A DNA stretch of 64,000 nt from Escherichia coli (GCF_003334785.1 NZ_QOWV01000002.1); one strand, 5' to 3'; positions 3,596 to 50,386 are shown, counted from the stretch's first letter. The notes: generated by a model not told the origin, from the letters alone. Numbers and translations are program-made.

Positions 3596-3638
3596 AAATC
3601 AGTGTATTGGTAGCTAAAAAGCCAGGGGCGGTAGCGTG
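3596..3638 (+). promoter_or_regulatory. JUMPStart element containing the ops motif GGCGGTAGCGTG (3627..3638) in the wza leader
   Basis: Exact ops 12-mer read in sequence, about 180 bp upstream of the wza start; same element repeated at 28098..28136. Confidence 0.8.
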
Positions 3639-18293: not shown

Positions 18294-19664
18294 ATGAAAA
18301 AATTAACCTGCTTTAAAGCCTATGATATTCGCGGGAAATTAGGCGAAGAACTGAATGAAGATATCGCCTGGCGCATTGGTCGCGCCTATGGCGAATTTCT
18401 CAAACCGAAAACCATTGTGTTAGGCGGTGATGTCCGTCTCACCAGCGAAACCTTAAAACTGGCGCTGGCAAAAGGTTTACAGGATGCGGGCGTTGACGTG
18501 TTGGATATTGGTATGTCCGGCACCGAAGAGATCTATTTCGCCACGTTCCATCTCGGCGTGGATGGCGGCATTGAAGTTACCGCCAGCCATAATCCGATGG
18601 ATTATAACGGCATGAAACTGGTGCGCGAAGGGGCTCGCCCAATCAGCGGTGATACCGGACTGCGCGACGTCCAGCGTCTGGCAGAAGCCAACGACTTTCC
18701 TCCCGTCGATGAAACCAAACGCGGTCGCTATCAGCAAATCAACCTGCGTGACGCTTACGTTGATCACCTGTTCGGTTATATCAATGTCAAAAACCTCACG
18801 CCGCTCAAGCTGGTGATCAACTCCGGGAACGGCGCAGCGGGTCCGGTGGTGGACGCTATCGAAGCCCGCTTTAAAGCCCTCGGCGCACCTGTGGAATTGA
18901 TCAAAGTGCACAACACGCCGGACGGCAATTTCCCCAACGGTATTCCTAACCCGCTGCTGCCGGAATGTCGCGACGACACCCGCAATGCGGTCATCAAACA
19001 CGGCGCGGATATGGGCATTGCCTTTGATGGCGATTTTGACCGCTGTTTTCTGTTTGACGAAAAAGGGCAGTTTATCGAGGGCTACTACATTGTCGGCCTG
19101 CTGGCAGAAGCGTTCCTCGAAAAAAATCCCGGCGCGAAGATCATCCACGATCCACGTCTCTCCTGGAACACCGTTGATGTGGTGACTGCCGCAGGTGGCA
19201 CGCCGGTAATGTCGAAAACCGGACACGCCTTTATTAAAGAACGTATGCGCAAGGAGGACGCCATCTACGGTGGCGAAATGAGCGCCCACCATTACTTCCG
19301 TGATTTCGCTTACTGCGACAGCGGCATGATCCCGTGGCTGCTGGTCGCCGAACTGGTGTGCCTGAAAGGAAAAACGCTGGGCGAACTGGTGCGCGACCGG
19401 ATGGCTGCGTTTCCGGCAAGCGGTGAGATCAACAGCAAACTGGCGCAACCCGTTGAGGCGATTAATCGCGTCGAACAGCATTTTAGCCGTGAGGCGCTGG
19501 CGGTGGATCGTACCGATGGCATCAGCATGACCTTTGCCGACTGGCGCTTTAACCTGCGCACCTCCAACACCGAACCGGTGGTGCGCCTGAATGTGGAATC
19601 GCGCGGTGATGTGCCGCTGATGGAAGCGCGAACGCGAACTCTGCTGACGTTGCTGAACGAGTAA
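18294..19664 (+). CDS. cpsG: Phosphomannomutase (colanic-acid copy)
   Basis: 456 aa from [14 protein letters not shown]; phosphohexomutase active-site region TASHNP. Confidence 0.95.
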
Positions 19665-22619: not shown

Positions 22620-22808
22620 TTGCCGGATGCGGCGTAAAACGCCTTATCCGTCCTACGGTTCTGTGCTCGGGACCTGTAGGCCTGATAAGACGCGTCAGCG
22701 TCGCATCAGGCACTGAATGCCGGATGCGGCGTGAACGCCTTATCCGGCCTACGGTTCTGTGCTCGGGTCTTGTAGGCCTGATAAGACGCGTCAGCGTCGC
22801 ATCAGGCA
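22620..22808. repeat. Tandem BIME: two near-identical units of about 100 bp, each with a pair of inverted REPs
   Basis: Motif gccggatgcggcgt.aacgccttatccg.cctacggttctgtgctcggg.cctgtaggcctgataagacgcgtcagcgtcgcatcaggca occurs twice in tandem. Confidence 0.75.
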
Positions 22809-26945: not shown

Positions 26946-27839
26946 ATGACGAATTTAAAAGCAGTTATTCCTGTAGCGGGTCTTGGGATGCATATGTTGC
27001 CTGCCACTAAGGCGATTCCCAAAGAGATGCTACCGATCGTCGACAAGCCAATGATTCAGTACATTGTTGACGAGATTGTGGCTGCAGGGATCAAAGAAAT
27101 CCTCCTGGTAACTCATGCGTCCAAGAACGCGGTCGAAAACCACTTCGACACCTCTTATGAATTAGAATCTCTTCTTGAACTGCGCGTGAAGCGTCAACTA
27201 CTGGCGGAAGTTCAGTCCATCTGCCCGCCGGGCGTGACCATTATGAACGTACGTCAGGGCGAACCTTTAGGTTTAGGTCACTCCATTTTGTGTGCACGAC
27301 CCGCCATTGGTGACAACCCATTTGTCGTGGTGCTGCCAGACGTTGTGATCGACGACGCCAGTGCCGACCCGCTGCGCTACAACCTTGCAGCCATGATTGC
27401 GCGCTTCAACGAAACGGGCCGCAGCCAGGTGCTGGCAAAACGTATGCCGGGTGACCTCTCTGAATACTCCGTCATTCAGACCAAAGAACCACTGGATCGT
27501 GAAGGTAAAGTCAGCCGCATTGTTGAATTTATCGAAAAACCGGATCAGCCGCAGACGCTGGATTCAGACATCATGGCCGTTGGTCGCTATGTGCTTTCTG
27601 CAGATATTTGGCCGGAACTTGAACGCACTCAGCCTGGTGCATGGGGGCGTATTCAGCTGACTGATGCCATCGCTGAACTGGCGAAAAAACAGTCTGTTGA
27701 TGCCATGCTGATGACAGGTGACAGCTACGACTGCGGTAAAAAAATGGGTTATATGCAGGCATTTGTGAAGTATGGACTACGCAACCTGAAAGAAGGGGCG
27801 AAGTTCCGTAAAGGTATTGAGAAGCTGTTAAGCGAATAA
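26946..27839 (+). CDS. galF: UTP-glucose-1-phosphate uridylyltransferase paralog GalF
   Basis: Start at [14 protein letters not shown]; flanks the O-antigen cluster. Confidence 0.9.
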
Positions 27840-28097: not shown

Positions 28098-28136
28098 CAG
28101 TGCTCTGGTAGCTGTAAAGCCAGGGGCGGTAGCGTG
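28098..28136 (+). promoter_or_regulatory. JUMPStart element with ops motif GGCGGTAGCGTG (28125..28136) upstream of the O-antigen operon
   Basis: cagtgctctggtagctgtaaagccaggggcggtagcgtg read directly; near-repeat of 3596..3638. Confidence 0.85.
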
Positions 28137-28195
28137 CTGAAATTATAAAGTCATTCTTATAGAACATCGCATTTCAATAATATAATTACACCTAA

Positions 28196-29452
28196 ATGAA
28201 TAGGATACAACGTGTGCATAATTATTTAAGGCTTAAAGATAAAATAAAAAACGTATTTTTAGGGTTATATATATTGCAGTTATTTAATTATATCGCGCCA
28301 TTGGTAATTATCCCTATCCTGATAAAATATATTGGGTTGGGGGAATATGGGGAATTAGTCTATATTACATCTATTTATCAAATAGTGGCTTTGTTTATTG
28401 ATTTTGGCTTTACTTACACAGGACCTGTGGTTGCTGCGAGACATAAATGTGAGATCCAAAATTTACAGCGCTATTACTCAATAGTTGTTCTTTTAAAATC
28501 ATTGCTTTTTATAATTGCATTAACATGTGTATTTTTATTGTGCAGATTAAATATAGTCCACTTGTCATTTTTGGGGTTTTTGTCAATTTTTCTATGCTCT
28601 ATTGGTAATATAGTATCGCCCAATTGGTTTTTGCAGGGGATTGGTGATTTTAAAAAACTTTCATACTCTCAAGTAATAGTGAGAATAACATTGTTTATCA
28701 TGCTTCTTGTTTATGTCTGTAGTGGCGGAGATAATGTTTTTATCTTAAGTTTTTTACAAAATGCAACATTACTCATATGCTGTATATACTTATGGCCAAA
28801 TATTCATATTAGCCATGTTGTTCATCTTAAACCTAATGAATGCATTGTGGAATTTAAGAAGGCAGGAAATGTTTTTATTGGCGTAATAGGTACGATTGGT
28901 TACAATGGTCTAATTCCTGTGTTAATTGGAAACCTTTGCGGTAATACGAGTCTTGGTGTTTTTTCAATCGTTCAAAAAATGACAACAGCATGTCAAAGCC
29001 TAATTAATCCAATATCACAGTATATGTTATCACAAGTTTCAGAAATTAAACCTCAAGATGAACTGTTTTATTATAGAATTAAAAAAAGTTTTTTTGTGCA
29101 TTTAACAATTAGCATAATTGCATGTTTATGTTATATGGGGTTAGGGCAATATGTGGCGACTTTTATAGGTAAAGTTGACGTTTCATTTGTTATTATTTTA
29201 TATGCGTCAGTAATTACAATTTTTTCATCTTTAAATAATGTCCTTGGTATACAGTTTCTTATACCGACAGATAATGTAAAAATACTGCGAAGTATAAATG
29301 TTATAGCGGGAATTATTGTTGTTAGTTTGTCCTGGCTGTTAATATCACGCTTTGACATTCTGGGGGGGGTTTTATTAAATCTAATTGGTGAGTTTCTTGT
29401 ATTCAGTATGCTAGCTTTTATTGCCCATCGTAAGTGGGGAGCGAGAGTATAA
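28196..29452 (+). CDS. wzx: O-antigen flippase Wzx (MOP superfamily)
   Basis: 418 aa, about 12 predicted membrane spans, AT-rich; first gene after JUMPStart. Confidence 0.75.
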   Translation: MNRIQRVHNYLRLKDKIKNVFLGLYILQLFNYIAPLVIIPILIKYIGLGEYGELVYITSIYQIVALFIDFGFTYTGPVVAARHKCEIQNLQRYYSIVVLLKSLLFIIALTCVFLLCRLNIVHLSFLGFLSIFLCSIGNIVSPNWFLQGIGDFKKLSYSQVIVRITLFIMLLVYVCSGGDNVFILSFLQNATLLICCIYLWPNIHISHVVHLKPNECIVEFKKAGNVFIGVIGTIGYNGLIPVLIGNLCGNTSLGVFSIVQKMTTACQSLINPISQYMLSQVSEIKPQDELFYYRIKKSFFVHLTISIIACLCYMGLGQYVATFIGKVDVSFVIILYASVITIFSSLNNVLGIQFLIPTDNVKILRSINVIAGIIVVSLSWLLISRFDILGGVLLNLIGEFLVFSMLAFIAHRKWGARV

Positions 29453-30795
29453 TGAAAGTGAAGGCGGTTCCTGCTATTACATTCTATTTAAGTTTAATGC
29501 TGACAATTTTAGTGTTACTGTTTGGTAATGAACCAAATAAATCACAATATATTCTTGTTATAGCAACGATAACAGTTTTTTATATCGCGTATATCACTAA
29601 TAAAATAACTTCTCCGGCCAGCCTTCTCGTTATATCATCTTTTGTGTTTTTAGGTTGTCGACCTTTATTATCTTTGTTTGCAAACTATGATTACAGGATT
29701 GCCGATTGGTTTATTGAAGGATATATGGATGACGATGTGATTATGGCTAACTATGCTATAACATTAATGTATTATGGTTATACATTGGGACTAATTCTAT
29801 GCAGAAATACTGAAAAAATTTATCCGCATGGATCATATCCAGAGAAACAATTGCTAAAAATAAAGTTTCTTTTGACTTTATTTTTTCTGGGTTCGATAGG
29901 TATGGTTGTGAAAGGGATATTCTTTTTTAACTTTATAGAATCTAATAGTTATGTTGATATATATCAATCAAATATAACAACGCCAATAGGTTATGATTTT
30001 CTGTCTTATTTGTTTTATTGTTCTTTTTTCCTTATATGTGCGTTTCATATACAGTTCAGAACAAATAAAAAATTTCTTTTTATTGCGATATGCATTGCTG
30101 CATTTAGCACCTTGAAGGGTAGTCGTAGTGAAGCTATAACGTTTCTTTTAACGGTTACATGTATATATTTTAATGAAGTAAAGACAAGAAACTTACGTTT
30201 GCTGATTACAATGATTTTTGTTTTTAGCGTCATTTTTGTGATTAGTGAATTTATCTCAATGTGGCGCACTGGAGGGAGTTTTATTCAATTAATGCAGGGT
30301 AATAATCCTGTTATAAACTTTGTATACGGCATGGGAGTATCATATCTTTCCATTTATCAATCAGTAAAACTACAACTATTGTCAGGGGGGTATAATGTTA
30401 CCTATCTATTCAGCCAGTTAATAATAACTTGCTCGTCAATATTTAATGTTAAATTGAGCTTGCCGGAAATAAGCTATAGCCATTTGGCCTCATACACAGC
30501 AAACCCAGAACTATATAATCTTGGGTTCGGACTTGGGGGAAGTTATTTAGCAGAATCGTTTTTAGCATTTGGTCTTATTGGGTGTTTCATAATACCCTTT
30601 TTACTTTTACTTAATTTAAATGTATTGGAAAAATACACAAAAAACAAACCAATCATATATTTTGTTTATTATAGTGTGTTGCCACCTATATTATTCACAC
30701 CAAGAGAGACTTTGTTCTATTTCTTCCCCTATCTTGTCAAAAGTATATTTGTTGCTTTTTTAGTTACATTATACATCCAGTATAAAAAGGATTGA
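29452..30795 (+). CDS. wzy: O-antigen polymerase Wzy (putative)
   Basis: Highly hydrophobic polytopic protein; ATG at 29452 overlaps the wzx stop (TAATG); the ORF track offers an upstream start at 29434. Confidence 0.65.
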   Translation: MKVKAVPAITFYLSLMLTILVLLFGNEPNKSQYILVIATITVFYIAYITNKITSPASLLVISSFVFLGCRPLLSLFANYDYRIADWFIEGYMDDDVIMANYAITLMYYGYTLGLILCRNTEKIYPHGSYPEKQLLKIKFLLTLFFLGSIGMVVKGIFFFNFIESNSYVDIYQSNITTPIGYDFLSYLFYCSFFLICAFHIQFRTNKKFLFIAICIAAFSTLKGSRSEAITFLLTVTCIYFNEVKTRNLRLLITMIFVFSVIFVISEFISMWRTGGSFIQLMQGNNPVINFVYGMGVSYLSIYQSVKLQLLSGGYNVTYLFSQLIITCSSIFNVKLSLPEISYSHLASYTANPELYNLGFGLGGSYLAESFLAFGLIGCFIIPFLLLLNLNVLEKYTKNKPIIYFVYYSVLPPILFTPRETLFYFFPYLVKSIFVAFLVTLYIQYKKD

Positions 30796-30800
30796 CGAAA

Positions 30801-31661
30801 ATGTCAGAAAAAAATGTCAGCATAATAATCCCAAGTTATAACAGGGCTCATATTCTTAAGGAGGTCATACCAAGTTATTTTCAGGATGAGACTTTAGAGG
30901 TAATAGTTATCAATGATGGATCAACAGATAATACAAATAGTGTATTAGCTGAACTGAAGGAAAAATATTCTCAATTAGTTATTTTAGAAAATGATACGAA
31001 CAAAAAACAGATGTATTCTAAAAACCGAGGGATTGAAATAGCCAAAGGGAAATATATTTTTTTTGGTGATGATGACTCTTACCTCTTACCCGGTGTTATA
31101 TCTCGGTTATTGGCTACAAAATATGAGACAGGCGCTGATGTAATCGGCGCAAGAATACTCTATATGAATAATAACGAGAAAACAATTGAAGATTGCATAA
31201 ATCGACATAAAACAGAGGGGCGTTTTGTTAGTGATTTAAATAGATTGGATTTTAGTTATACATGTGATTTGGACCATCCGATTGAATGTTTTTATGCACA
31301 GTCTATTATTCTAGCTGAAAGGGAACTAATATCGAAATATCGATTTGATATATCTTATACGGGAAACTGCTATCGTGAGGAAACTGATTTCATGTTATCT
31401 CTTTTTATAAAAAATAAAAAATTTATATATGATTCAAAGGCTCTGTTAATAAATTTACCTCCACGAAAAGCGACGGGAGGGGCAAGAACAGCTAATCGAT
31501 TAAAATATCATTATGAAAGTTGCATAAATAATTATAGATTTTTAAAAAAATATAATGATAATTTGAATCTTCTTTCAGGACAAAAGCATGCTATATTTTA
31601 CCGACAGTGTCAATTCGTTCTGCTAAAAATTAAGTCGTTTATCGGGAAGTTTTTAAAATGA
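30801..31661 (+). CDS. Glycosyltransferase family 2 (O-unit synthesis)
   Basis: N-terminal SIIIPSYNRA...INDGSTDNT and downstream DDD motif typical of GT2; ATG 30801 preceded by aagga. Confidence 0.75.
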   Translation: MSEKNVSIIIPSYNRAHILKEVIPSYFQDETLEVIVINDGSTDNTNSVLAELKEKYSQLVILENDTNKKQMYSKNRGIEIAKGKYIFFGDDDSYLLPGVISRLLATKYETGADVIGARILYMNNNEKTIEDCINRHKTEGRFVSDLNRLDFSYTCDLDHPIECFYAQSIILAERELISKYRFDISYTGNCYREETDFMLSLFIKNKKFIYDSKALLINLPPRKATGGARTANRLKYHYESCINNYRFLKKYNDNLNLLSGQKHAIFYRQCQFVLLKIKSFIGKFLK

Positions 31662-32689
31662 TTGTATATATTGCCGCGTATAATGGTTCAGGAGGGCAAG
31701 GTGGGGTGGAAAGGGTTGTTGCCCAACAATGTAACATTCTTAAAAATTTGGGGGTTAAAGTCATTATACTTGATAAAGCATACTTCAAAATTTCTAACAA
31801 AATTCGTAACAAAAAAATACAAGTAGCACTTTATCCAATATTAGTTTCTCTTTATTTAACCTTACAAAAATTACGTGGCGTGACGTTTAAAGTTATTGCG
31901 CATGGCTATTGTTCTCCTTTTTATAGGAATGACATCTTAATAGCTCATGGCAATATGAAATGTTATTTTCAAACAGTCATGAAAAAAAAACCTAATCGAT
32001 TGTCCGGCAGTGGTCTTTTATCTTTCTATGAGCGTTTGGCTGGATCATTCTCAAAAAATATCTGGGCTGTTTCAAATAAGGTTAAAAGTGAATGGAATGA
32101 GCTTTACAATATTAATTCACATAAAATTAAAGTTGTTCGAAATTTTATAAATCTTGAACAATTTGATTGCACTGATGTTAATGAAGCACAATATGTGACA
32201 TTTGTCGGGCGATTGGAAAAAGGAAAAGGAATAGATGATCTGTATTACATATGTAAAAATCTGCCAGATACTTCCTTCCATTTAGTTTCAAGTATTCCCG
32301 CCCCACAAAATTTTGCTTCGCTAAATAATGTTCTGACCAGCATTGCTGTCCCCTATGCGAAAATGCCAGAAATATTTAAGAAATCCAGAGTACTTATTTT
32401 ACCGTCCTATTATGAAGGATATGAGCTGGTTACTATTGAAGCGCTATGCTGTGGTTGCCCTGTGATAGGCTATAACGTTGGTGCAATTAGAGAGTTGTAT
32501 GCTGAAAGTTTTCCTGGCGTGTTTATTGCCAATAATAAAGAAGATTTAGCACAAGTAGCCTACGAACTAATTAGTCTTGATAATGAAAAATATTATCATT
32601 TGAGACAAACTATTTATAGCAAGCGTGAGCTTTTTTCTGAAGAGAGATATGCGGAAATTTTAACGGCGGCATTTAATGAAAAAAAATAA
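31658..32689 (+). CDS. Glycosyltransferase, GT4/group-1 type
   Basis: 343 aa; C-terminal LPSYYEGYELVTIEA E-x7-E motif. Confidence 0.75.
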   Translation: MIVYIAAYNGSGGQGGVERVVAQQCNILKNLGVKVIILDKAYFKISNKIRNKKIQVALYPILVSLYLTLQKLRGVTFKVIAHGYCSPFYRNDILIAHGNMKCYFQTVMKKKPNRLSGSGLLSFYERLAGSFSKNIWAVSNKVKSEWNELYNINSHKIKVVRNFINLEQFDCTDVNEAQYVTFVGRLEKGKGIDDLYYICKNLPDTSFHLVSSIPAPQNFASLNNVLTSIAVPYAKMPEIFKKSRVLILPSYYEGYELVTIEALCCGCPVIGYNVGAIRELYAESFPGVFIANNKEDLAQVAYELISLDNEKYYHLRQTIYSKRELFSEERYAEILTAAFNEKK

Positions 32690-33821
32690 GAAACTATGTC
32701 TCATTTCAATTAACTCATATAATGAACTTACCGGAGGAGGAGTATATTTACGTACGCTTGTTAGTTTTCTACAAAAACAGAATGTTAATTTAACACTTAT
32801 TGATAAAAAATCTTCAGGTAAACTATTCGAAGACAATACTTTTCAACATATATCATTTATTAAAGGTAAACGTCAGGATATTATATCCAGGCTTTTTTTT
32901 ATACCATCATTTTATGTCCCTTATATTTTCTCAATAATTAAAATTTTACGGAAGCAAGATATTCTAGCTTTTCACAACTCTCGACTTGGATTGTTATGTC
33001 TGCTTTTTAGAATACTCATGCCCCATAAAAAGATCATATTGTTTACGGATAACTTCGAATATGACTTAATAAGACAAAAAGATAAAAACATAACTACTTT
33101 TGTTGAAAAAATAATTGTTTATCTCAATGAATTTATCGGGCTTAAGAATTCACATTTAGTTAGCTATATTACCCGGCAAGATAAAAATGCAATGGATAAA
33201 TTTTATGGGGTTAAAAAAAGCAGAAATTTAATTCTCCCTGTGATATTTAGTAGAGAAAAGCCAACTGATGTATTATCAGCTCACTTTATTAATGAGTATA
33301 ATCGATTGAATAATGATAATAGGAAAAAAGTAGTATTTACTGCATCTTTTGATTTTTTTCCAAATATAGATGCTGCCAACTATGTTTTAAATGCAGCAAA
33401 GTCGAATAATGATTATTGCTATATTTTGGCAGGTAGGAAAAGTACTACTTTGAATCTTCCTGATTTGGATAATTTATTTTTTTTCGATAATCTATCTAAT
33501 AGTGAAATGTCATATTTATTATCTGCTTGTGATATTTTTTATTCTCCTATAGTTTTAGGAAGTGGAATGAAAACAAAAATTGCAGAAGCGCTATCATATG
33601 GATTATATATTTATGCGACAGAGCATTCCTTAATCGGCTATGATGAAATTATAAACAACAAGGAGTGTGTTAAAAAAATCTCACATTTGGATGAGGAATT
33701 TCCTAAAGATTTCAAGGTGAAAAGTATCAATAAACAGCTAATAATGTCTTATCAGCAAAAATATTATTCACATTATCGGTTTAATGGCCATGAACTTGAC
33801 ATGATAAATATTGACGATTAG
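32676..33821 (+). CDS. Glycosyltransferase (probable GT4-like)
   Basis: 381 aa; general GT-B-like layout; weaker motif support than neighbours. Confidence 0.6.
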   Translation: MKKNKKLCLISINSYNELTGGGVYLRTLVSFLQKQNVNLTLIDKKSSGKLFEDNTFQHISFIKGKRQDIISRLFFIPSFYVPYIFSIIKILRKQDILAFHNSRLGLLCLLFRILMPHKKIILFTDNFEYDLIRQKDKNITTFVEKIIVYLNEFIGLKNSHLVSYITRQDKNAMDKFYGVKKSRNLILPVIFSREKPTDVLSAHFINEYNRLNNDNRKKVVFTASFDFFPNIDAANYVLNAAKSNNDYCYILAGRKSTTLNLPDLDNLFFFDNLSNSEMSYLLSACDIFYSPIVLGSGMKTKIAEALSYGLYIYATEHSLIGYDEIINNKECVKKISHLDEEFPKDFKVKSINKQLIMSYQQKYYSHYRFNGHELDMINIDD

Positions 33822-33837
33822 TTAGTGGAGATATAAT

Positions 33838-34845
33838 ATGAACATATTAGTAACTGGTGGTGCTGGATATATCGGATCTCATACGGCTATTGAATTACTA
33901 AATGCAGGTCATGAGATTATCGTTCTGGACAATTTCAGTAATGCTTCATACAAGTGTATCGAAAAAATAAAAGAAATTACTCGACGTGATTTTATAACAA
34001 TTACAGGAGATGCTGGGTGTAGGAAGACACTCTCCGCTATTTTCGAGAAACACGCCATAGATATAGTTATTCATTTTGCTGGCTTTAAATCTGTTTCAGA
34101 GTCTAAAAGTGAACCCTTAAAGTATTACCAAAATAATGTTGGAGTGACCATTACTTTATTACAGGTAATGGAAGAGTACAAAATTAAAAAATTTATCTTT
34201 AGTTCATCTGCGACAGTCTATGGTGAACCAGAGATAATTCCAATTTCAGAAACAGCTAAAATTGGAGGAACTACGAATCCATATGGCACATCGAAATATT
34301 TTGTTGAAAAAATTCTAGAGGATGTTAGTTCCACGGGAAAACTGGATATAATTTGCTTGAGATATTTTAATCCTGTCGGTGCTCATTCTAGTGGTAAAAT
34401 AGGTGAAGCTCCATCTGGTATCCCTAATAATCTTGTCCCTTATTTATTGGATGTTGCAAGTGGTAAACGTGATAAATTATTTATTTATGGCAATGATTAT
34501 CCTACTAATGATGGAACAGGTGTAAGAGATTTTATTCATGTTGTTGACTTAGCGAAAGGTCATTTGGCTGCAATGAATTATTTAAGTATCAATTCGGGAT
34601 ATAATATCTTTAATCTTGGTACAGGAAAAGGTTATTCAGTGCTTGAATTAATCACTACATTTGAAAAATTAACAAACATTAAGGTCAATAAATCTTTTAT
34701 AGAGAGAAGGGCAGGGGATGTTGCGTCTTGTTGGGCTGATGCAGATAAAGCTAATTCTTTATTGGACTGGAAAGCCGAACAAACTCTAGAACAGATGTTA
34801 TTGGACTCGTGGCGTTGGAAAAAAAATTATCCAGACGGATTCTGA
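33838..34845 (+). CDS. gne: UDP-hexose / UDP-N-acetylhexosamine 4-epimerase (GalE/Gne family)
   Basis: 335 aa; N-terminal TGGAGYIGSH Rossmann motif and YGTSK catalytic motif of short-chain epimerases. Confidence 0.8.
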   Translation: MNILVTGGAGYIGSHTAIELLNAGHEIIVLDNFSNASYKCIEKIKEITRRDFITITGDAGCRKTLSAIFEKHAIDIVIHFAGFKSVSESKSEPLKYYQNNVGVTITLLQVMEEYKIKKFIFSSSATVYGEPEIIPISETAKIGGTTNPYGTSKYFVEKILEDVSSTGKLDIICLRYFNPVGAHSSGKIGEAPSGIPNNLVPYLLDVASGKRDKLFIYGNDYPTNDGTGVRDFIHVVDLAKGHLAAMNYLSINSGYNIFNLGTGKGYSVLELITTFEKLTNIKVNKSFIERRAGDVASCWADADKANSLLDWKAEQTLEQMLLDSWRWKKNYPDGF

Positions 34846-34865
34846 ATAAAAAAGGTTTCAGTTTT

Positions 34866-36071
34866 ATGAATCAATCAGAGCAGAGAAAAAAAATACTGGT
34901 TCTTACACCTCGCTTTCCCTACCCTGTCATTGGAGGGGATAGATTAAGAGTCTATATGTTATGTAAAGAACTTTCCAAAAAATATGATCTTATTCTTCTG
35001 AGCTTATGTGATCAACCACTAGAACTTGAAATAAATATAAATGACTCGGTCTTCAAAGAAATTCATCGTGTCTATCTACCAAAATATAAATCATATTATA
35101 ATGTATTTAAAGCTTTGGTTACGCAAAAACCGTTGCAAATTGCTTATTATCAATCGGACACATTTAAGAATAAATACAATAAATTAATTAAACAATGCGA
35201 TGCAGTATTTTGTCATCTAATAAGAGTTGCTGATTATGTTAAGGATACAGACAAGTTCAAAATTCTTGATATGACAGATGCAATATCTTTGAATTACAGT
35301 CGCGTTAAAAAATTAGCAAGTAAAAAAAGTTTGCGTGCAATTATTTATTCTCTGGAACAAAAAAGATTAGAATCATATGAGCGTTCTGTGGCGAATCTTT
35401 TTGATTTGACCACTTTTATTTCATCCGTAGACCGTGACTATCTCTACCCTAATCCGGGCAGTAATATCCATATAGTCAATAATGGGGTTGATACATCAGC
35501 CTTGAGATATATAAAAAGAGAAATAAAAATCGATAAGCCGGTGGAACTTATATTTATCGGAAATATGTATTCTTTACAAAATATGGATGCTGCAAAAAAT
35601 TTTGCTAAGAATATTTTACCTTGCTTGCATGATGAGTTTAATATTATTTTTAAAGTGATTGGTAAGATCTCAGAAACTAATAAAAATATATTAAATTCAT
35701 TTAAAAATACAATTGCTTTAGGTACTGTTGATGATATCAATTCTTCCGCTTCTACAGGGCATATAGGTATATGTCCTGTTCGTCTTGGAGCAGGCGTACA
35801 AAATAAAATTCTTGAATACATGGCTTTAGGTTTACCATGTATTACATCTAGCATTGGTTATGAAGGTATTAATGCAAAATCTGGTAGCGAAATTTTTGTT
35901 GCAGATACAGTAGAGCAATATAAAAACGTACTAAGAGAAATAATTTACGATTATAATCGTTATACTGAAGTGGCTGAAAATGCCCGTAGTTTTGTAGAAA
36001 ATAATTTTTCTTGGGAATCAAAAGTTGCCAATTTAATGAATATATTAGATGAGAAATTATATGAACAATAA
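34866..36071 (+). CDS. Glycosyltransferase, GT4/group-1 type
   Basis: Start at [20 protein letters not shown] (internal Met of ORF 34809..36071); GT4 layout. Confidence 0.7.
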
Positions 36072-37500
36072 TAAAATTATTACACCTATCATTATGGCAG
36101 GTGGTTCAGGCAGTCGGTTGTGGCCACTATCAAGAATTCTCTATCCGAAACAATTTCTTAGCCTAAACGGTAGTCATACCATGCTTCAAACAACGGCTAA
36201 TCGTCTGGATGGTTTGGATTGTACCAACCCTTATGTCATTTGTAATGAACAACACCGCTTTATAGTTGCTGAACAGCTTAGAAAAATCGATAGATTGACT
36301 TCAAAGAATATCATCCTTGAGCCTGTTGGGCGTAACACTGCCCCTGCAATTGCATTAGCGGCGTTGCTGATGTCTAAGTCTGATAAAAGTGCAGATGATC
36401 TTATGCTCGTACTGGCTGCAGATCACGTTATATTAGATGAAGAAAAATTTTGTAACGCTGTTAGATCGGCAATTCCATACGCTGCTGATGGGAAATTGGT
36501 AACATTTGGTATAATTCCAGACAAAGCAGAAACTGGTTATGGTTATATACATCGAGGACAATATATTAATCAGGAAGATTCGGATGCATTTATAGTGTCA
36601 TCATTTGTTGAAAAGCCAAATCATGAGACAGCCACTAAATATCTTGCTTCCGGTGAGTATTATTGGAATAGCGGTATGTTTTTGTTTAGTGCAAATCGTT
36701 ATATAGAGGAACTTAAACAATTTCGGCCTGATATTTTATCCGCTTGTGAAAAAGCAATTGCTTCAGCGAACTTTGACCTTGATTTTGTGCGTTTAGATGA
36801 AAGTTCTTTCTCTAAGTGTCCTGAAGAGTCAATTGATTACGCTGTAATGGAAAAAACAAAAGACGCAATTGTTATTCCAATGGATGCTGGCTGGAGTGAT
36901 GTCGGTTCATGGTCTTCTCTTTGGGAAATTAATGATAAAGACTCAGACGGCAACGTAATAGTTGGGGATATTTTCTCTCATGAAACAAAGAATTCTTTCA
37001 TATATGCCGAATCGGGAATTGTTGCTACAGTGGGAGTGGAAAATTTAGTTGTTGTCCAAACAAAGGATGCCGTTCTTGTCTCAGAGAGAAATAAAGTTCA
37101 GGATGTAAAGAAAATAGTCGAACAAATTAAAAATTCAGGTCGTAGCGAGCATTATGTTCATCGCGAAGTATATCGTCCTTGGGGTAAATATGATTCCATT
37201 GACACAGGGGAGCGTTATCAGGTCAAACGTATAACAGTAAATCCTGGTGAAGGACTTTCTTTACAAATGCACCATCATAGGGCAGAACATTGGATCATAG
37301 TTTCTGGAACTGCAAAGGTGACTATAGGTTCTGAAACTAAGATTCTTAGCGAAAATGAATCTGTTTACATACCTCTTGGTGTAATACACTGCTTGGAAAA
37401 TCCAGGGAAAATTCCTCTTGATTTAATTGAAGTTCGTTCTGGATCTTATTTAGAAGAAGACGATGTTATCCGTTTTCAGGACCGATATGGTCGCAGCTAA
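36061..37500 (+). CDS. manC: Mannose-1-phosphate guanylyltransferase (O-antigen copy)
   Basis: Protein close to CpsB ([14 protein letters not shown]), but DNA is AT-rich and diverged from cpsB. Confidence 0.9.
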
Positions 37501-37582
37501 ATTTTTGATAATGTAACGTTAGTAGAAGAACGCTAATATTTTTAGTTAATCTGTAATAAGTATTATTTGTTTAAGGTATATC

Positions 37583-38953
37583 ATGTCGAGTTTAACCTGC
37601 TTTAAAGCCTATGATATTCGCGGGAAATTAGGCGAAGAACTGAATGAAGATATCGCCTGGCGTATTGGGCGTGCCTATGGCGAATTTCTCAAACCGAAAA
37701 CCATTGTGTTAGGCGGTGACGTCCGCCTCACCAGCGAAACCTTAAAACTGGCGCTGGCGAGAGGTTTACAGGATGCGGGCGTCGATGTGCTGGATATCGG
37801 CATGTCCGGCACCGAAGAGATCTATTTCGCCACGTTCCATCTCGGCGTGGATGGCGGCATCGAAGTTACCGCCAGCCATAATCCGATGGATTATAACGGC
37901 ATGAAGCTGGTTCGCGAGGGGGCTCGCCCGATCAGCGGAGATACCGGACTGCGCGACGTCCAGCGTCTGGCTGAAGCCAACGACTTTCCTCCCGTCGATG
38001 AAACCAAACGCGGTCGCTATCAGCAAATCAACCTGCGTGACGCTTACGTTGATCACCTGTTCGGTTATATCAATGTCAAAAACCTCACGCCGCTCAAGCT
38101 GGTGATCAACTCCGGGAACGGCGCAGCGGGTCCGGTGGTGGACGCTATCGAAGCCCGCTTTAAAGCCCTCGGCGCACCTGTGGAATTGATCAAAGTGCAC
38201 AACACGCCGGACGGCAATTTCCCCAACGGTATTCCTAACCCGCTGCTGCCGGAATGTCGCGACGACACCCGCAATGCGGTCATCAAACACGGCGCGGATA
38301 TGGGCATTGCCTTTGATGGCGATTTTGACCGCTGTTTTCTGTTTGACGAAAAAGGGCAGTTTATCGAGGGCTACTACATTGTCGGCCTGCTGGCAGAAGC
38401 GTTCCTCGAAAAAAATCCCGGCGCGAAGATCATCCACGATCCACGTCTCTCCTGGAACACCGTTGATGTGGTGACTGCCGCAGGTGGCACGCCGGTAATG
38501 TCGAAAACCGGACACGCCTTTATTAAAGAACGTATGCGCAAGGAGGACGCCATCTACGGTGGCGAAATGAGCGCCCACCATTACTTCCGTGATTTCGCTT
38601 ACTGCGACAGCGGCATGATCCCGTGGCTGCTGGTCGCCGAACTGGTGTGCCTGAAAGAGAAAACGCTGGGCGAACTGGTACGCGACCGGATGGCGGCGTT
38701 TCCGGCAAGCGGTGAGATCAACAGCAAACTGGCGCAACCCGTTGAGGCGATTAACCGCGTGGAACAGCATTTTAGCCGTGAGGCGCTGGCGGTGGATCGC
38801 ACCGATGGCATCAGCATGACCTTTGCCGACTGGCGCTTTAACCTGCGCTCCTCCAACACCGAACCGGTGGTGCGCCTGAATGTGGAATCGCGCGGTGATG
38901 TGCCGCTGATGGAAGAAAAGACAAAACTTATCCTTGCGTTATTGAACAAGTAA
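37583..38953 (+). CDS. manB: Phosphomannomutase (O-antigen copy)
   Basis: 456 aa; DNA nearly identical to cpsG across most of its length. Confidence 0.95.
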
Positions 38954-39116: not shown

Positions 39117-40523
39117 ATGTCAAAGCAACAGATTGGCGTCGTCGGTATGGCAGTGATGGGGCGCAACCTTGCGCTCAACATCGAAAGCCGTGGTTATACC
39201 GTCTCTATTTTCAACCGTTCCCGTGAGAAGACGGAAGAAGTGATTGCCGAAAATCCAGGCAAGAAATTGGTTCCTTACTTTACGGTAAAAGAGTTTGTTG
39301 AATCTCTGGAAACGCCTCGTCGCATCCTGTTAATGGTGAAAGCAGGTGCAGGCACGGATGCTGCTATTGATTCCCTCAAGCCATACCTCGATAAAGGTGA
39401 CATCATCATTGATGGTGGTAACACCTTCTTCCAGGATACTATTCGTCGTAACCGTGAGCTTTCTGCAGAAGGTTTTAACTTCATTGGTACCGGTGTTTCC
39501 GGCGGTGAAGAAGGCGCGTTGAAAGGGCCGTCCATCATGCCAGGTGGGCAGAAAGAAGCCTATGAACTTGTTGCGCCGATCCTGACCAAAATCGCCGCAG
39601 TGGCTGAAGACGGTGAGCCATGCGTTACCTATATCGGTGCCGATGGCGCAGGCCATTATGTGAAGATGGTACACAACGGTATTGAATACGGCGATATGCA
39701 GCTGATTGCTGAAGCCTATTCGTTGCTTAAAGGCGGCCTTAATCTCTCTAACGAAGAACTGGCGCAGACGTTTACCGAGTGGAATAACGGTGAACTGAGC
39801 AGCTACCTGATCGACATCACCAAAGATATCTTCACCAAAAAAGATGAAGACGGTAACTACCTGGTTGATGTGATTCTGGATGAAGCAGCAAACAAAGGTA
39901 CCGGTAAATGGACCAGCCAGAGCGCGCTGGATCTCGGCGAACCGCTGTCGCTGATTACCGAGTCTGTGTTTGCACGTTATATCTCGTCTCTGAAAGATCA
40001 GCGCGTTGCCGCGTCTAAAGTTCTCTCTGGCCCGCAAGCACAGCCAGCAGGCGACAAGGCTGAGTTCATCGAAAAAGTTCGCCGTGCGCTGTATCTTGGC
40101 AAAATCGTTTCTTACGCTCAGGGCTTCTCTCAGCTGCGTGCTGCGTCTGAAGAATACAACTGGGCTCTGAACTACGGCGAAATCGCGAAGATTTTCCGTG
40201 CTGGCTGCATCATCCGTGCGCAGTTCCTGCAGAAAATCACCGATGCTTATGCCGAAAATCCGCAGATCGCTAACCTGCTGCTGGCTCCGTACTTCAAGCA
40301 AATTGCCGATGACTACCAGCAGGCGCTGCGTGATGTCGTCGCATATGCAGTACAGAACGGTATCCCGGTTCCGACCTTCGCCGCTGCGGTTGCCTATTAC
40401 GATAGCTACCGTGCCGCTGTTCTGCCTGCGAACCTGATCCAGGCACAGCGTGACTATTTCGGTGCGCATACTTATAAGCGCATTGATAAAGAAGGTGTGT
40501 TCCATACTGAATGGCTGGATTAA
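39117..40523 (+). CDS. gnd: 6-phosphogluconate dehydrogenase, decarboxylating
   Basis: 468 aa; N-terminal [20 protein letters not shown]-binding motif. Confidence 0.95.
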
Positions 40524-42080: not shown

Positions 42081-43061
42081 ATGATGAGAGTAGAAAATAA
42101 TAATGTTTCTGGGCAAAATCATGACCCGGAACAGATTGATTTGATTGATTTACTAGTGCAGTTGTGGCGTGGCAAGATGACAATCATCATTTCCGTCATT
42201 GTGGCTATTGCCCTGGCTATTGGTTATTTGGCAGTCGCGAAGGAGAAATGGACGTCAACAGCAATTATCACTCAGCCCGACGTGGGGCAAATTGCTGGCT
42301 ATAACAATGCCATGAATGTTATCTATGGTCAGGCTGCACCGAAAGTATCGGATTTACAGGAGACGTTAATTGGTCGCTTCAGTTCTGCTTTCTCTGCATT
42401 AGCAGAAACGCTGGATAATCAGGAAGAACCAGAAAAACTTACCATCGAACCTTCTGTTAAGAACCAGCAATTACCATTGACTGTTTCTTATGTTGGGCAA
42501 ACTGCAGAGGGAGCACAAATGAAGTTGGCCCATTACATTCAGCAAGTTGATGATAAAGTGAATCAAGAGCTAGAAAAGGATCTCAAAGACAACATTGCTC
42601 TGGGACGGAAAAACTTGCAGGACTCTTTAAGAACCCAGGAAGTGGTTGCGCAGGAGCAGAAAGATCTGCGTATCCGTCAGATTCAGGAAGCGTTGCAGTA
42701 TGCGAATCAGGCGCAGGTGACAAAGCCACAGGTTCAGCAGACTGAAGATGTGACACAAGATACGTTGTTCCTTTTGGGGAGCGAAGCGCTGGAGTCGATG
42801 ATTAAGCATGAGGCGACCCGTCCGTTGGTGTTCTCGCCAAACTACTATCAGACACGTCAAAACCTGTTGGATATTGAAAACTTAAAGGTTGATGATCTTG
42901 ATATTCATGCTTACCGCTATGTGATGAAACCGACGTTACCTATTCGTCGCGATAGTCCGAAAAAGGCAATCACCTTGATTCTGGCAGTGCTTCTGGGCGG
43001 CATGGTTGGCGCGGGGATTGTGTTGGGGCGTAATGCTCTGCGTAATTACAACGCGAAGTAA
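42081..43061 (+). CDS. wzzB: O-antigen chain-length determinant WzzB
   Basis: Start at MMRVENNN; two membrane spans flanking a coiled-coil-rich periplasmic region; C-terminal GGMVGAGIVL. Confidence 0.9.
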   Translation: MMRVENNNVSGQNHDPEQIDLIDLLVQLWRGKMTIIISVIVAIALAIGYLAVAKEKWTSTAIITQPDVGQIAGYNNAMNVIYGQAAPKVSDLQETLIGRFSSAFSALAETLDNQEEPEKLTIEPSVKNQQLPLTVSYVGQTAEGAQMKLAHYIQQVDDKVNQELEKDLKDNIALGRKNLQDSLRTQEVVAQEQKDLRIRQIQEALQYANQAQVTKPQVQQTEDVTQDTLFLLGSEALESMIKHEATRPLVFSPNYYQTRQNLLDIENLKVDDLDIHAYRYVMKPTLPIRRDSPKKAITLILAVLLGGMVGAGIVLGRNALRNYNAK

Positions 43062-50234: not shown

Positions 50235-50272
50235 CAATAAAAAAGCCCCCGGAAGGTGATCTTCCGGGGGCT
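50235..50272 (-). terminator. his attenuator terminator hairpin
   Basis: Minus strand reads agcccccggaag-atcac-cttccgggggc followed by UUUUUUAUU, between hisL and hisG. Confidence 0.85.
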
Positions 50273-50335
50273 TTCTCATGCGTTCATGCACCACTGGAAG
50301 ATCTGAATGTCTTCCAGCACACATCGCCTGAAAGA

Positions 50336-50386
50336 CTAGTCAGGATGATGGTGATGATGGTGGTGTTTAAATTGAACGCGTGTCAT
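50336..50386 (-). CDS. hisL: his operon leader peptide (MTRVQFKHHHHHHHPD)
   Basis: Minus-strand 16-codon ORF with seven consecutive His codons upstream of the attenuator. Confidence 0.9.
   Translation of the reverse strand: MTRVQFKHHHHHHHPD

Follow-up and report, generated by a model that had tools for sequence, protein, structure and literature searches.

Overlapping gene junctions and operon compaction in the Escherichia coli O6 O-antigen cluster

Four of the eight gene junctions in the O6 O-antigen cluster overlap, by 1, 4, 14 and 11 nt, and the other four are gaps of 5, 16, 20 and 82 nt. The overlaps are real but, as judged from gene coordinates, start-site evidence and comparison with neighbouring operons, very probably represent the usual tight packing of a bacterial operon. 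The cluster and its gene coordinates are already known and annotated, and the overlaps are nothing special to it. Three overlaps had been described in the first-pass annotation of bases 29434–36071: TAATG between wzx and wzy, 14 nt before the third glycosyltransferase, and 11 nt between the last glycosyltransferase and manC. All three were present as described and agree with RefSeq coordinates. A fourth overlap within the same interval, the ATGA between the GT2 and GT4 genes, had been missed. The RefSeq/PGAP annotations of VE-F10, W, CFT073 and O6:H16 ETEC, whose clusters are identical or 98.5% identical, contain exactly these starts and stops.

The O6 O-antigen locus

The window, a 64-kb stretch (64,000 nt) of E. 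coli chromosome, contains the O6 cluster at bases 28196–38953 (Table 1), flanked upstream by galF (26946–27839) and downstream by gnd (39117–40523). The locus is arranged as galF, JUMPStart/ops, wzx, wzy, GT2, GT4, GT, gne, GT4, manC, manB, gnd. Nucleotide identity across 28196–38953 was 100% to VE-F10, 99.9% to E. coli W and 98.5% to CFT073/Nissle, and annotated O6 clusters were found in 154 complete genomes at 98.5–100% identity. Both wzx and wzy are labelled “O6 family” by PGAP and share 98.5–100% DNA identity with their counterparts in CFT073, Nissle 1917, O6:H16 ETEC and E. coli W. By these identities, the 29434–36071 interval is identified as the central part of the Wzx/Wzy-dependent E. 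coli O6 O-antigen operon.

Table 1 Features of the O6 O-antigen cluster, in window coordinates.
Feature	Position	Strand	Evidence or remarks
JUMPStart element containing ops	28098–28136	+	Rfam RF01707, 60 bits versus gathering score 35; upstream of the cluster's first gene
wzx, O6 family O-antigen flippase, first gene of the cluster	28196–29452	+	PGAP, identical record
Predicted RNA hairpin, last 40 nt of wzx	29414–29448	+	GGGGAGCGAGAG, the purine-rich ribosome-binding site of wzy, is paired in the predicted fold
TAATG, 1-nt overlap	29450–29454	+	wzx TAA 29450–29452; wzy in-frame ATG 29452–29454
wzy, O6 family O-antigen polymerase	29452–30795	+	PGAP; TIGR04370 repeat-unit polymerase, E = 7e-15
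GT2-family glycosyltransferase	30801–31661	+	PGAP; 5-nt gap from wzy; AAGGA 9 nt upstream
ATGA, 4-nt start/stop overlap, GT2/GT4	31658–31661	+	Same junction in Salmonella and Morganella clusters
GT4-family glycosyltransferase (second)	31658–32689	+	PGAP; N-terminus MIVYIAAYNGSGGQGGVERV aligns with orthologue starts
14-nt overlap ATGAAAAAAAATAA	32676–32689	+	Upstream GT4 TAA 32687–32689; next ATG 32676
Third glycosyltransferase, GT-B fold	32676–33821	+	Weak GT4/GT1 Pfam matches: PF13439 residues 20–183, PF13692 residues 217–329
GalE-family 4-epimerase (annotated galE)	33838–34845	+	TIGR01179, E = 2e-129
Fourth glycosyltransferase (GT4)	34866–36071	+	PGAP; TIGR03087
11-nt overlap ATGAACAATAA	36061–36071	+	Last glycosyltransferase TAA 36069–36071; manC ATG 36061; identical in both O6 lineages
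manC (annotated cpsB), mannose-1-phosphate guanylyltransferase	36061–37500	+	NF012004, 865 bits
manB (annotated cpsG), phosphomannomutase	37583–38953	+	NF011943, 1050 bits; 82 nt past manC

Searches with NCBIfam and Pfam identified GT2, GT4, GT-B and GT4 glycosyltransferase genes, a galE-family epimerase gene, manC and manB. The O6 repeat unit is composed of Man, GalNAc and GlcNAc with a Glc or GlcNAc branch. The predicted gene content fits this unit, with four glycosyltransferases, the GDP-mannose pathway and a 4-epimerase. The epimerase annotated as galE is presumably Gne, which makes UDP-GalNAc; its gene follows a 16-nt gap and has its own Shine-Dalgarno (SD) sequence (GGAG, −6.4 kcal/mol). 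The manB gene is 92–100% identical to the colanic acid cpsG of the same window.

Upstream of the first gene, an exact match to ops, GGCGGTAGCGTG, is located at 28125–28136, with the motif GGCGGTAG on the coding strand at 28125–28132, ~60 nt upstream of wzx. No SD was found at the wzx start, where the duplex energy (+1.8 kcal/mol) is weaker than in 97% of background windows. Within the cluster, neither promoter-like sites (50 versus 50.1 expected from shuffled sequence) nor terminator-like sites (3 versus 7.6 expected) occurred in excess, and the overlapping junctions leave no space for such signals. The overlapping pairs are co-directional and lie within one apparent transcription unit, and the cluster would be transcribed as a single RfaH-dependent polycistronic mRNA.

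Start codons and the overlapped bases

Several start codons in the interval had been regarded as uncertain, but this holds for wzy alone, where ATG 29452, GTG 29434 and GTG 29458 are candidates; the starts at 32676, 36061, 30801, 31658 and 34866 are supported. The overlaps could in principle be annotation artefacts, with the true starts lying past the preceding stops and the genes not overlapping. This explanation is very unlikely overall and, on the alignments and reading frames described below, is largely refuted for 32676 and 36061.

The start of the third glycosyltransferase is fixed by the structure of its open reading frame, as ATG 32676 is the sole ATG, GTG or TTG between the in-frame stop at 32661–32663 and a point beyond +150 nt, leaving no alternative within 150 nt downstream. 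It also matches 25 homologues (25–59% identity), which start 0–6 residues from this position and whose conservation sets in at residue 5 with the block K-x-x-L-I-S-I-N-S..E-L-T-G-G-G. For manC, the start is set by alignments to profiles, solved structures and homologues. In the form read from ATG 36049, residues 11–482 align to positions 6–477 of NF012004. Position 1 of TIGR01479 corresponds to nt 36079, alignments to PDB entries 2x5s, 2qh5 and 2cu2 begin at residues 12–14, and in four manC homologues 2–5 residues precede the I-x-P-[VI]-[IV] strand. These alignments place the conserved first strand from nt 36079 on and fit a start at ATG 36061 rather than at 36049 or 36094. The non-overlapping ATG 36094 was rejected because it deletes the residues aligned to TIGR01479 positions 1–5 and to the first strand of all three solved structures.

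Homologue N-termini agree with the overlapping starts, and their alignments did not favour non-overlapping downstream starts at either the 14-nt or the 11-nt overlap; gene calls in the homologous contigs are automatic predictions and cannot prove start sites independently. Homologues or profiles likewise match the starts of the adjacent genes at 30801, 31658 and 34866. Longest-ORF calls do inflate overlaps at two other junctions, a point in favour of the artefact explanation. TTG 30792 was rejected as the GT2 start, since the N-terminal length of the Salmonella and Morganella orthologues equals that of the ATG 30801 form. GTG 34809 was rejected for the fourth glycosyltransferase in favour of ATG 34866, which is supported by PGAP and by TIGR03087; position 1 of this profile lies 9 residues past ATG 34866 and its end 6 residues short of the stop.

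For wzy, homologue N-termini do not discriminate among the three candidates, and scoring of the candidates' ribosome-binding sites ranked the overlapping ATG 29452 best (−7.7 kcal/mol, a value within the best 3% of background windows), followed by GTG 29458 (−5.8 kcal/mol) and GTG 29434 (+0.6 kcal/mol). The in-frame GTG 29458 would replace the overlap by a 5-nt gap after the wzx stop and uses the same purine-rich upstream region, which lends the artefact explanation some support at this junction; ATG 29452 is nevertheless the stronger start codon and has the better SD spacing. ATG 29452 is favoured by its ribosome-binding site, with some ambiguity remaining. The TAATG junction is the same in both O6 lineages. 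The 81-nt fold at this junction, one of eight junctions examined, has a minimum free energy (MFE) of −22.5 kcal/mol (z-scores of −2.3 for the window and −2.5 for CFT073), and the sole lineage SNP at the predicted hairpin (29431, T/A) sits in the loop. Fold comparison found no such hairpin at the Salmonella and Morganella junctions, and it is not conserved outside O6; the hairpin is considered a weak lead only.

The 14-nt overlap encodes the upstream tail NEKK* and the downstream MKKNK, and contains a run of eight adenines (A8, 32679–32686). A +1 shift in this run would switch ribosomes to the downstream frame immediately ahead of the TAA, so that A8 could act as a slippage site, either as a phase-variation switch or to produce a fused two-domain glycosyltransferase by +1 frameshifting or transcriptional slippage. 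One genome, SCU-112, does carry A6, but its annotation is fragmented and a second homopolymer in the 140 aligned nucleotides is also shortened (T6 to T5), consistent with an assembly error. The junction (32640–32694) is identical in 150 of the 154 O6 genomes, and A8 is confined to O6 genomes; the corresponding junctions of Salmonella, Morganella and Aeromonas lack it. Neither an SD-like nor a structural stimulator was evident (fold z = −0.83), and the combination of a conserved slippery run with a stimulatory element, as expected of a programmed frameshift, was not found at A8. Slippage is therefore regarded as highly improbable, and the 14 nt are read as an ordinary overlap. The C-terminal tails of the GT4 orthologues differ and are not conserved.

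Overlap frequency and translational coupling

With RefSeq coordinates, overlaps were counted for 15 of the 48 pairs of adjacent same-strand genes in the 64-kb window, with lengths of 1 (four pairs), 4 (five), 7, 11 (two), 14, 19 and 26 nt. The proportion of overlapping junctions is 4/8 in the O6 cluster, 4/19 in the colanic acid cluster and 6/7 in the his operon. No excess was observed in O6 relative to the rest of the window (4/8 versus 11/40, Fisher p = 0.24). Genome-wide, 24% of E. coli K-12 junctions fall in the −8 to +6 nt class (PMC10666635), compared to 3/8 in O6 (binomial p = 0.29). A −14 overlap is also found at ftsI/murE of E. coli K-12.

Termination-reinitiation coupling at the four overlapping junctions is plausible. 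It is a reasonable inference because their geometry matches that of pairs shown experimentally to be coupled, 13 of 14 native overlapping pairs, five from E. coli, having proved strictly coupled (PMC6728339). Reinitiation drops steeply as distance grows (PMC10666635). At the four junctions, a ribosome ending the upstream gene could reinitiate at the nearby start, 0–11 nt backwards, which would make expression of Wzy, of two glycosyltransferases and of ManC depend on translation of the respective preceding gene. The contribution of reinitiation would be greatest for genes with a weak ribosome-binding site (manC and the third glycosyltransferase) and for wzy, whose site appears to lie in a hairpin. 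No SD above background was found for manC (−2.7 kcal/mol, 38th percentile), and the SD is marginal for the second glycosyltransferase (−4.4 kcal/mol) and for the third (−5.0 kcal/mol), at the ~12–13th percentile of background windows. The suggestion in the first-pass annotation that coupling extends through the cluster was too strong, since coupling cannot span the four junctions with 5–82 nt gaps, where independent initiation is more likely.

It is possible, though doubtful, that the overlaps are neutral by-products of compaction in very AT-rich DNA, with each gene initiated independently and coupling functionally irrelevant. Stop codons would be displaced to whichever out-of-frame stop comes next and start codons would drift, with start regions A/U-rich and unstructured. 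Consistent with this, the G+C content of the cluster is about 30–35%, and there is very little local structure around the starts of the third glycosyltransferase gene (61-nt MFE −3.1 kcal/mol, with 92% of cluster windows at least as stable) and of manC (−1.7 kcal/mol, 97%), so both genes could initiate independently without a strong SD. The overlapped bases encode only a non-conserved C-terminal tail and the first 1–5 residues of the next protein, homologous clusters differ in overlap length, and overlap frequency in O6 is not above that of the rest of the window. Against neutrality, strict coupling was the outcome for nearly all pairs in the only systematic tests (PMC6728339), the rank of the manC SD makes efficient independent initiation less likely, and the GT2/GT4 ATGA is kept in Salmonella and Morganella at 41–66% protein identity.

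Comparison with known clusters and coupled gene pairs

The O6 clusters of CFT073, Nissle 1917, 536, ATCC 25922 and E. coli W occupy the same locus with 98.5–100% identity over 9.3 kb; their gene order, position between galF and gnd, RefSeq starts and stops and all four overlaps are as in the window. The E. coli O6 cluster has been described (Grozdanov et al. 2002, J Bacteriol 184:5912, via PMC6895014). Within O6, the window falls in the W/VE-F10 sub-lineage. Its differences from the CFT073/Nissle sub-lineage amount to 0.7–2% per gene and are of no substance; none of them falls in overlapped bases. In the same window, the his operon is likewise a long biosynthetic operon with overlaps of 1, 1, 1, 4, 7 and 19 nt, and the colanic acid (wca) cluster, which has a JUMPStart as in O6, has overlaps of 4, 4, 4 and 26 nt. 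Both have about 53–56% G+C versus about 31–35% for the O6 genes.

In other genera, Salmonella enterica and Morganella morganii share the wzx-wzy-GT2-GT4-GT order at 39–66% protein identity, followed by manC-manB, and Aeromonas caviae keeps the GT4-GT pair. Overlaps occur at the corresponding junctions in all three, as in O6, and the GT2/GT4 junction is ATGA in Salmonella and Morganella as well. The GT4/GT overlap measures 11 nt in Salmonella, 11 nt in Morganella and 4 nt in Aeromonas versus 14 nt in O6, indicating that its exact geometry is not conserved; these three junctions are without the A8 run of O6. The related clusters also lack the wzy-start hairpin and differ from O6 in their downstream genes.

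The trpB-trpA pair is an example of a translationally coupled overlapping pair. The proteins encoded by the O6 cluster are not known to be subunits of a single complex. Among configurations in E. coli, overlaps of −1 and −4 nt are the most frequent, and the −11 and −14 overlaps of O6, which have a weak SD or none, are rarer than −4, −1 and −8 (PMC10666635). Coupled pairs (Huber et al. 2019, PMC6728339; PMC10666635) are co-directional with −1 and −4 overlaps (TAATG, ATGA), as in O6, and in both any SD sits within the 3′ end of the upstream gene.

The O6 locus and its overlapping junctions

The window is a stretch of E. coli chromosome that carries, in order, asmA, yegH, the colanic acid cluster from wza to wcaM (3817-26771), galF (26946-27839), a low-G+C block, gnd, ugd, wzzB and, on the minus strand, the his operon. 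The G+C content of the block from 28 to 37 kb was about 29-37% per kb. Its segment 28196-37500 displayed 100% identity to strain VE-F10, 99.9% to E. coli W and 98.5% to CFT073, Nissle 1917, 536, ATCC 25922 and O6:H16 ETEC strains, and 154 of 5,426 complete genomes carry the whole segment. RefSeq names wzx, the first gene, an "O6 family O-antigen flippase" and wzy, the second, an "O6 family O-antigen polymerase". The locus is the known, already sequenced and annotated E. coli O6 O-antigen operon, and a passage of PMC6895014 attributes the first description of the cluster to Grozdanov et al. (2002). RefSeq coding sequences were mapped to the window and rechecked on the sequence; the resulting coordinates are collected in the table together with the Rfam matches. 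An NCBIfam profile scan returned no match for wzx or the third glycosyltransferase.

Coordinates of the O6 cluster genes and of RNA elements in the window
Feature	Position	Strand	Basis	Remark
JUMPStart/ops	3600-3638		Rfam RF01707, 57 bits	heads colanic acid cluster
naRNA4	22679-22749	-	Rfam match	between wzxC and wcaK
JUMPStart + ops, complete	28098-28136		Rfam RF01707, 60 bits	heads O6 cluster
wzx	28196-29452		RefSeq CDS	
wzy	29452-30795		RefSeq CDS	
GT2 glycosyltransferase	30801-31661		RefSeq CDS	
GT4 glycosyltransferase (second)	31658-32689		RefSeq CDS	
third glycosyltransferase	32676-33821		RefSeq CDS	
galE-family epimerase	33838-34845		RefSeq CDS	
GT4 glycosyltransferase (last)	34866-36071		RefSeq CDS	
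manC	36061-37500		RefSeq CDS	
manB	37583-38953		RefSeq CDS	
His leader	50237-50360	-	Rfam match	
STnc240	52658-52732	+	Rfam match	upstream of yoeI/plaP

The three overlaps reported in the first-pass annotation were reproduced to the base: TAATG at 29450-29454 between wzx and wzy, 14 nt between the second and third glycosyltransferase genes (ATG 32676 against the gene end at 32689), and 11 nt between the last glycosyltransferase gene and manC (ATG 36061 against 36071). A fourth overlap in the same interval, absent from that annotation, is the 4-nt ATGA at 31658-31661 joining the GT2 and GT4 genes. All are already visible in the public annotation.

Several other features of the window were recorded. 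Within the window, manB was 92-100% identical to colanic acid cpsG (18294-19664), reaching 100% over 37983-38582; G+C climbs to about 0.55 there, and the adjoining manC and cpsB share only 59-72% identity. The likeness of the two phosphomannomutase genes looks like gene conversion between the copies. Upstream of cpsG, 18240-18289 matches the algC RNA motif (RF02929, 78 bits); the 82 nt between manC and manB in the O6 cluster gave no such Rfam match. Compared with the otherwise near-identical VE-F10, cpsG carries 17 clustered substitutions at 18818-19256, suggesting a recombination patch, and wzzB an in-frame 12-nt insertion at 42354-42365. Single-base deletions in two O6 contigs, five in ATCC 25922 (NZ_CP037449.1) and one in RIVM_C040348, account for the wzx, wzy, galE or GT4 genes called "frameshifted" there by PGAP; in the former contig the called GT4 start was also moved downstream (4049 versus about 3960). 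Since another ATCC 25922 assembly (H22) matched across the full 9305 bases, these deletions are probably sequencing errors.

Start codons at the overlaps

The first-pass annotation had regarded several start codons as uncertain. That concern largely fails: ORF structure, profiles and homologues support both 32676 and 36061, and homologue alignments do not favor non-overlapping downstream starts at either the 14-nt or the 11-nt overlap.

The frame of the third glycosyltransferase opens past an in-frame TAA at 32661-32663, and ATG 32676 is the sole ATG, GTG or TTG between that stop and a point beyond +150 nt. A homologue search returned 43 proteins, and 25 full-length sequences (25-59% identity) from Salmonella, Citrobacter, Enterobacter, Morganella, Aeromonas, Shewanella, Moritella and metagenomes were aligned. 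All 25 have N-termini 0-6 residues from the methionine of the E. coli protein, in which residue 5 opens the conserved block K-x-x-L-I-S-I-N-S-x-x-E-L-T-G-G-G and residue 20 the Pfam GT4 N-domain match. The 14-nt overlap is thus forced by the sole available start codon, the homologue N-termini and the Pfam coverage.

This overlap contains an A8 homopolymer (32679-32686), which could in principle link the two reading frames through a +1 shift or allow phase variation. Slippage of this kind is not supported, as the junction including A8 was identical in 150 of 154 O6 genomes, with no evidence of phase variation among the 154, and the run is missing at all three homologous junctions (Salmonella, Morganella and Aeromonas). 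The one A6 variant, in SCU-112, is accompanied by an adjacent T6-to-T5 deletion and fragmented annotation and appears consistent with an assembly error.

For manC, the equivalog profile NF012004 (478 positions) aligned over positions 6-477 with residues 11-482 of the longer form beginning at ATG 36049. Position 1 of TIGR01479 corresponds to residue 11 of that form (nt 36079), and alignments to three solved GDP-mannose pyrophosphorylases begin at its residues 12-14. In colanic acid CpsB from the same window and in ManC of Salmonella, Morganella and Aeromonas, 2-5 residues precede the I-x-P-[VI]-[IV] strand, and the Morganella N-terminus MNNND resembles the O6 MNNNK. ATG 36049 was rejected as it adds four residues found in no homologue and lacks a Shine-Dalgarno (SD) match, and the non-overlapping ATG 36094 would remove the first conserved strand. 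Judged from these alignments, ATG 36061 fits as the manC start and the 11-nt overlap stands. As the source of the overlaps, misannotated starts can be all but dismissed at 32676 and 36061 and are possible at wzy alone.

The start of wzy is the sole one with real residual uncertainty. The best ribosome-binding site, GGGGAG plus GAGAG (−7.7 kcal/mol), lies upstream of ATG 29452 and falls within the top 3% of a background of 20-nt windows from the cluster. GTG 29434 scored +0.6 kcal/mol, and GTG 29458 shares the purines of ATG 29452 at longer spacing and with a weaker start codon. Depending on the start, the junction is a 19-nt overlap, a 1-nt overlap or a 5-nt gap. The Wzy N-termini of Salmonella and Morganella did not discriminate between starts 2-6 codons apart. 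Of the other overlapping genes, the third glycosyltransferase has a marginal SD (−5.0 kcal/mol) and manC none above background (−2.7 kcal/mol for 36041-36060, 38th percentile).

Neighboring starts were also in agreement with RefSeq. The N-terminal length from ATG 30801 (GT2 gene) agrees with both orthologues, from ATG 31658 the second glycosyltransferase reads MIVYIAAYNGSGGQGGVERV, compared with MKVYIAAFNGDGGQGGVERV in its Salmonella counterpart, and ATG 34866 of the last GT4 gene lies 9 residues ahead of TIGR03087 position 1. The second glycosyltransferase has a marginal SD (−4.4 kcal/mol). Its internal GTG 31706 was rejected as a start, since both the first conserved strand and the Gly-rich loop would be lost; the strong GGAGG just upstream (31686-31708, −10.8 kcal/mol) comes from the codons encoding the conserved SGGQGG loop and might cause ribosomes to pause. 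The longest-ORF starts GTG 29434, TTG 30792, GTG 34809 and ATG 36049 were rejected because of their SD scores, the profile alignments and the N-termini of homologues, and should be avoided; taken by themselves they would give yet more overlap than the RefSeq starts. The RefSeq starts of the cluster are confirmed as sound, with wzy the least certain.

Conservation of the junctions and possible translational coupling

Contigs from Salmonella enterica, Morganella morganii and Aeromonas caviae were selected as encoding homologues of the third glycosyltransferase. The first two carry the same module, wzx-wzy-GT2-GT4-GT followed by manC-manB; their module proteins share 39-66% identity with those of O6, ManC 55-63% and ManB 67-87%. 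A. caviae carries a related GT4-GT pair. By automatic gene calls, with the protein alignments rather than these calls as the independent evidence, the GT2/GT4 junction is a 4-nt ATGA in O6, Salmonella and Morganella (not present in Aeromonas). The GT4/GT overlap is 14 nt in O6, 11 nt in Salmonella and Morganella and 4 nt in Aeromonas, and the wzx/wzy junction, as called, is 1, 14 and 8 nt in O6, Salmonella and Morganella (again not present in Aeromonas). Tight or overlapping junctions thus persist in the module while their exact geometry drifts. The tails of the upstream protein at the overlap, each followed by the stop, are unconserved (AAFNEKK in O6 versus KKEFCCGE and KKEISHDA in the orthologues), and the downstream side encodes the variable first residues of the next protein, so the overlapped bases are under little dual-coding constraint. 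Between the two O6 lineages all the overlapped bases were identical, a comparison that at 1.5-2% divergence has almost no power on constraint.

The genes are co-directional and closely packed behind JUMPStart/ops. Promoter-like sites were not enriched (50 versus 50.1 expected), and terminator-like sites numbered 3 versus 7.6 expected. The cluster is probably carried by a single RfaH-dependent polycistronic mRNA. The first gene, wzx, has no SD match (28176-28195, +1.8 kcal/mol). RfaH reportedly aids ribosome recruitment to ops operons, an idea credited to Burmann and colleagues in Cell in 2012, and the absent wzx SD would fit it.

At the four overlapping junctions, ribosomes terminating upstream may reinitiate at the nearby start. 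Among native overlapping pairs from E. coli and Haloferax, 13 of 14 were strictly coupled by reinitiation (PMC6728339), and reinitiation depends steeply on distance (PMC10666635). Its contribution would count most where independent initiation is weak, namely at manC and the third and second glycosyltransferases. The overlaps might instead reflect neutral compaction without functional coupling, a less likely but plausible reading: few windows are less structured than those at the starts of the third glycosyltransferase and manC, overlap lengths are unconserved and overlap frequency is at baseline. Translational coupling at the overlaps is plausible from the gene arrangement, and the first-pass annotation is upheld in its observation and partly in its interpretation, the starts being mostly secure. 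Its proposal that coupling runs through the cluster does not hold, as gaps of 5, 16, 20 and 82 nt separate the other genes. The three shorter gaps have AAGGA, GGAG or AAGG at usable spacing; initiation there and across the 82-nt manC-manB gap is probably independent, so coupling cannot be unbroken.

A predicted hairpin at 29414-29448, in the last 40 nt of wzx, pairs the purine-rich wzy ribosome-binding site. The 81-nt fold of this junction has an MFE of −22.5 kcal/mol (z = −2.3 for the window sequence, −2.5 for CFT073), and wzy alone among eight junctions exceeded shuffled sequences in structure (the remainder z −0.85 to +1.2). The sole lineage SNP in the region falls in the loop. A ribosome completing wzx would open the predicted hairpin. 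The hairpin is a weak lead as a possible regulatory element, being one of eight junctions examined and not conserved at the Salmonella or Morganella junctions. It seems quite improbable that it would lock the wzy site so that Wzy is made only by ribosomes just finishing wzx, fixing a low Wzy:Wzx ratio by O6-specific structure-gated coupling.

These results bear on the cloning and refactoring of O6 genes, as in glycoconjugate vaccine work or the engineering of Nissle or W strains. Splitting genes at the overlaps would cut the neighboring frame and might lose coupling, altering enzyme ratios. The results have little importance beyond annotation quality and touch no open biological question.

Comparison with baseline overlap frequency

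Of the 48 neighboring same-strand pairs in the window, 15 overlap when RefSeq coordinates are used, by 1 (four pairs), 4 (five pairs), 7, 11 (two pairs, the second being yoeI/plaP), 14, 19 and 26 nt. Overlaps account for 4 of 8 junctions in the O6 cluster, 4 of 19 in the colanic acid cluster and 6 of 7 in the his operon (O6 versus the rest of the window, Fisher p=0.24). Co-directional overlaps occur in ~15% of gene pairs across 720 prokaryotic genomes (PMC6728339). In K-12, 707 of 2,987 unidirectional pairs (24%) lie at −8 to +6 nt (PMC10666635), compared with 3 of 8 O6 junctions (binomial p=0.29). Overlap density in the O6 cluster is not above chance or baseline. The first 75 entries of the K-12 supplement list include ftsI/murE at −14 as well as overlaps of −17 and −25 in the thi operon (PMC10666635). 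Overlaps of −1 and −4 are the commonest E. coli junction types, whereas the −11 and −14 of O6 are rarer and unremarkable, and nothing in the cluster departs from textbook operon organization.
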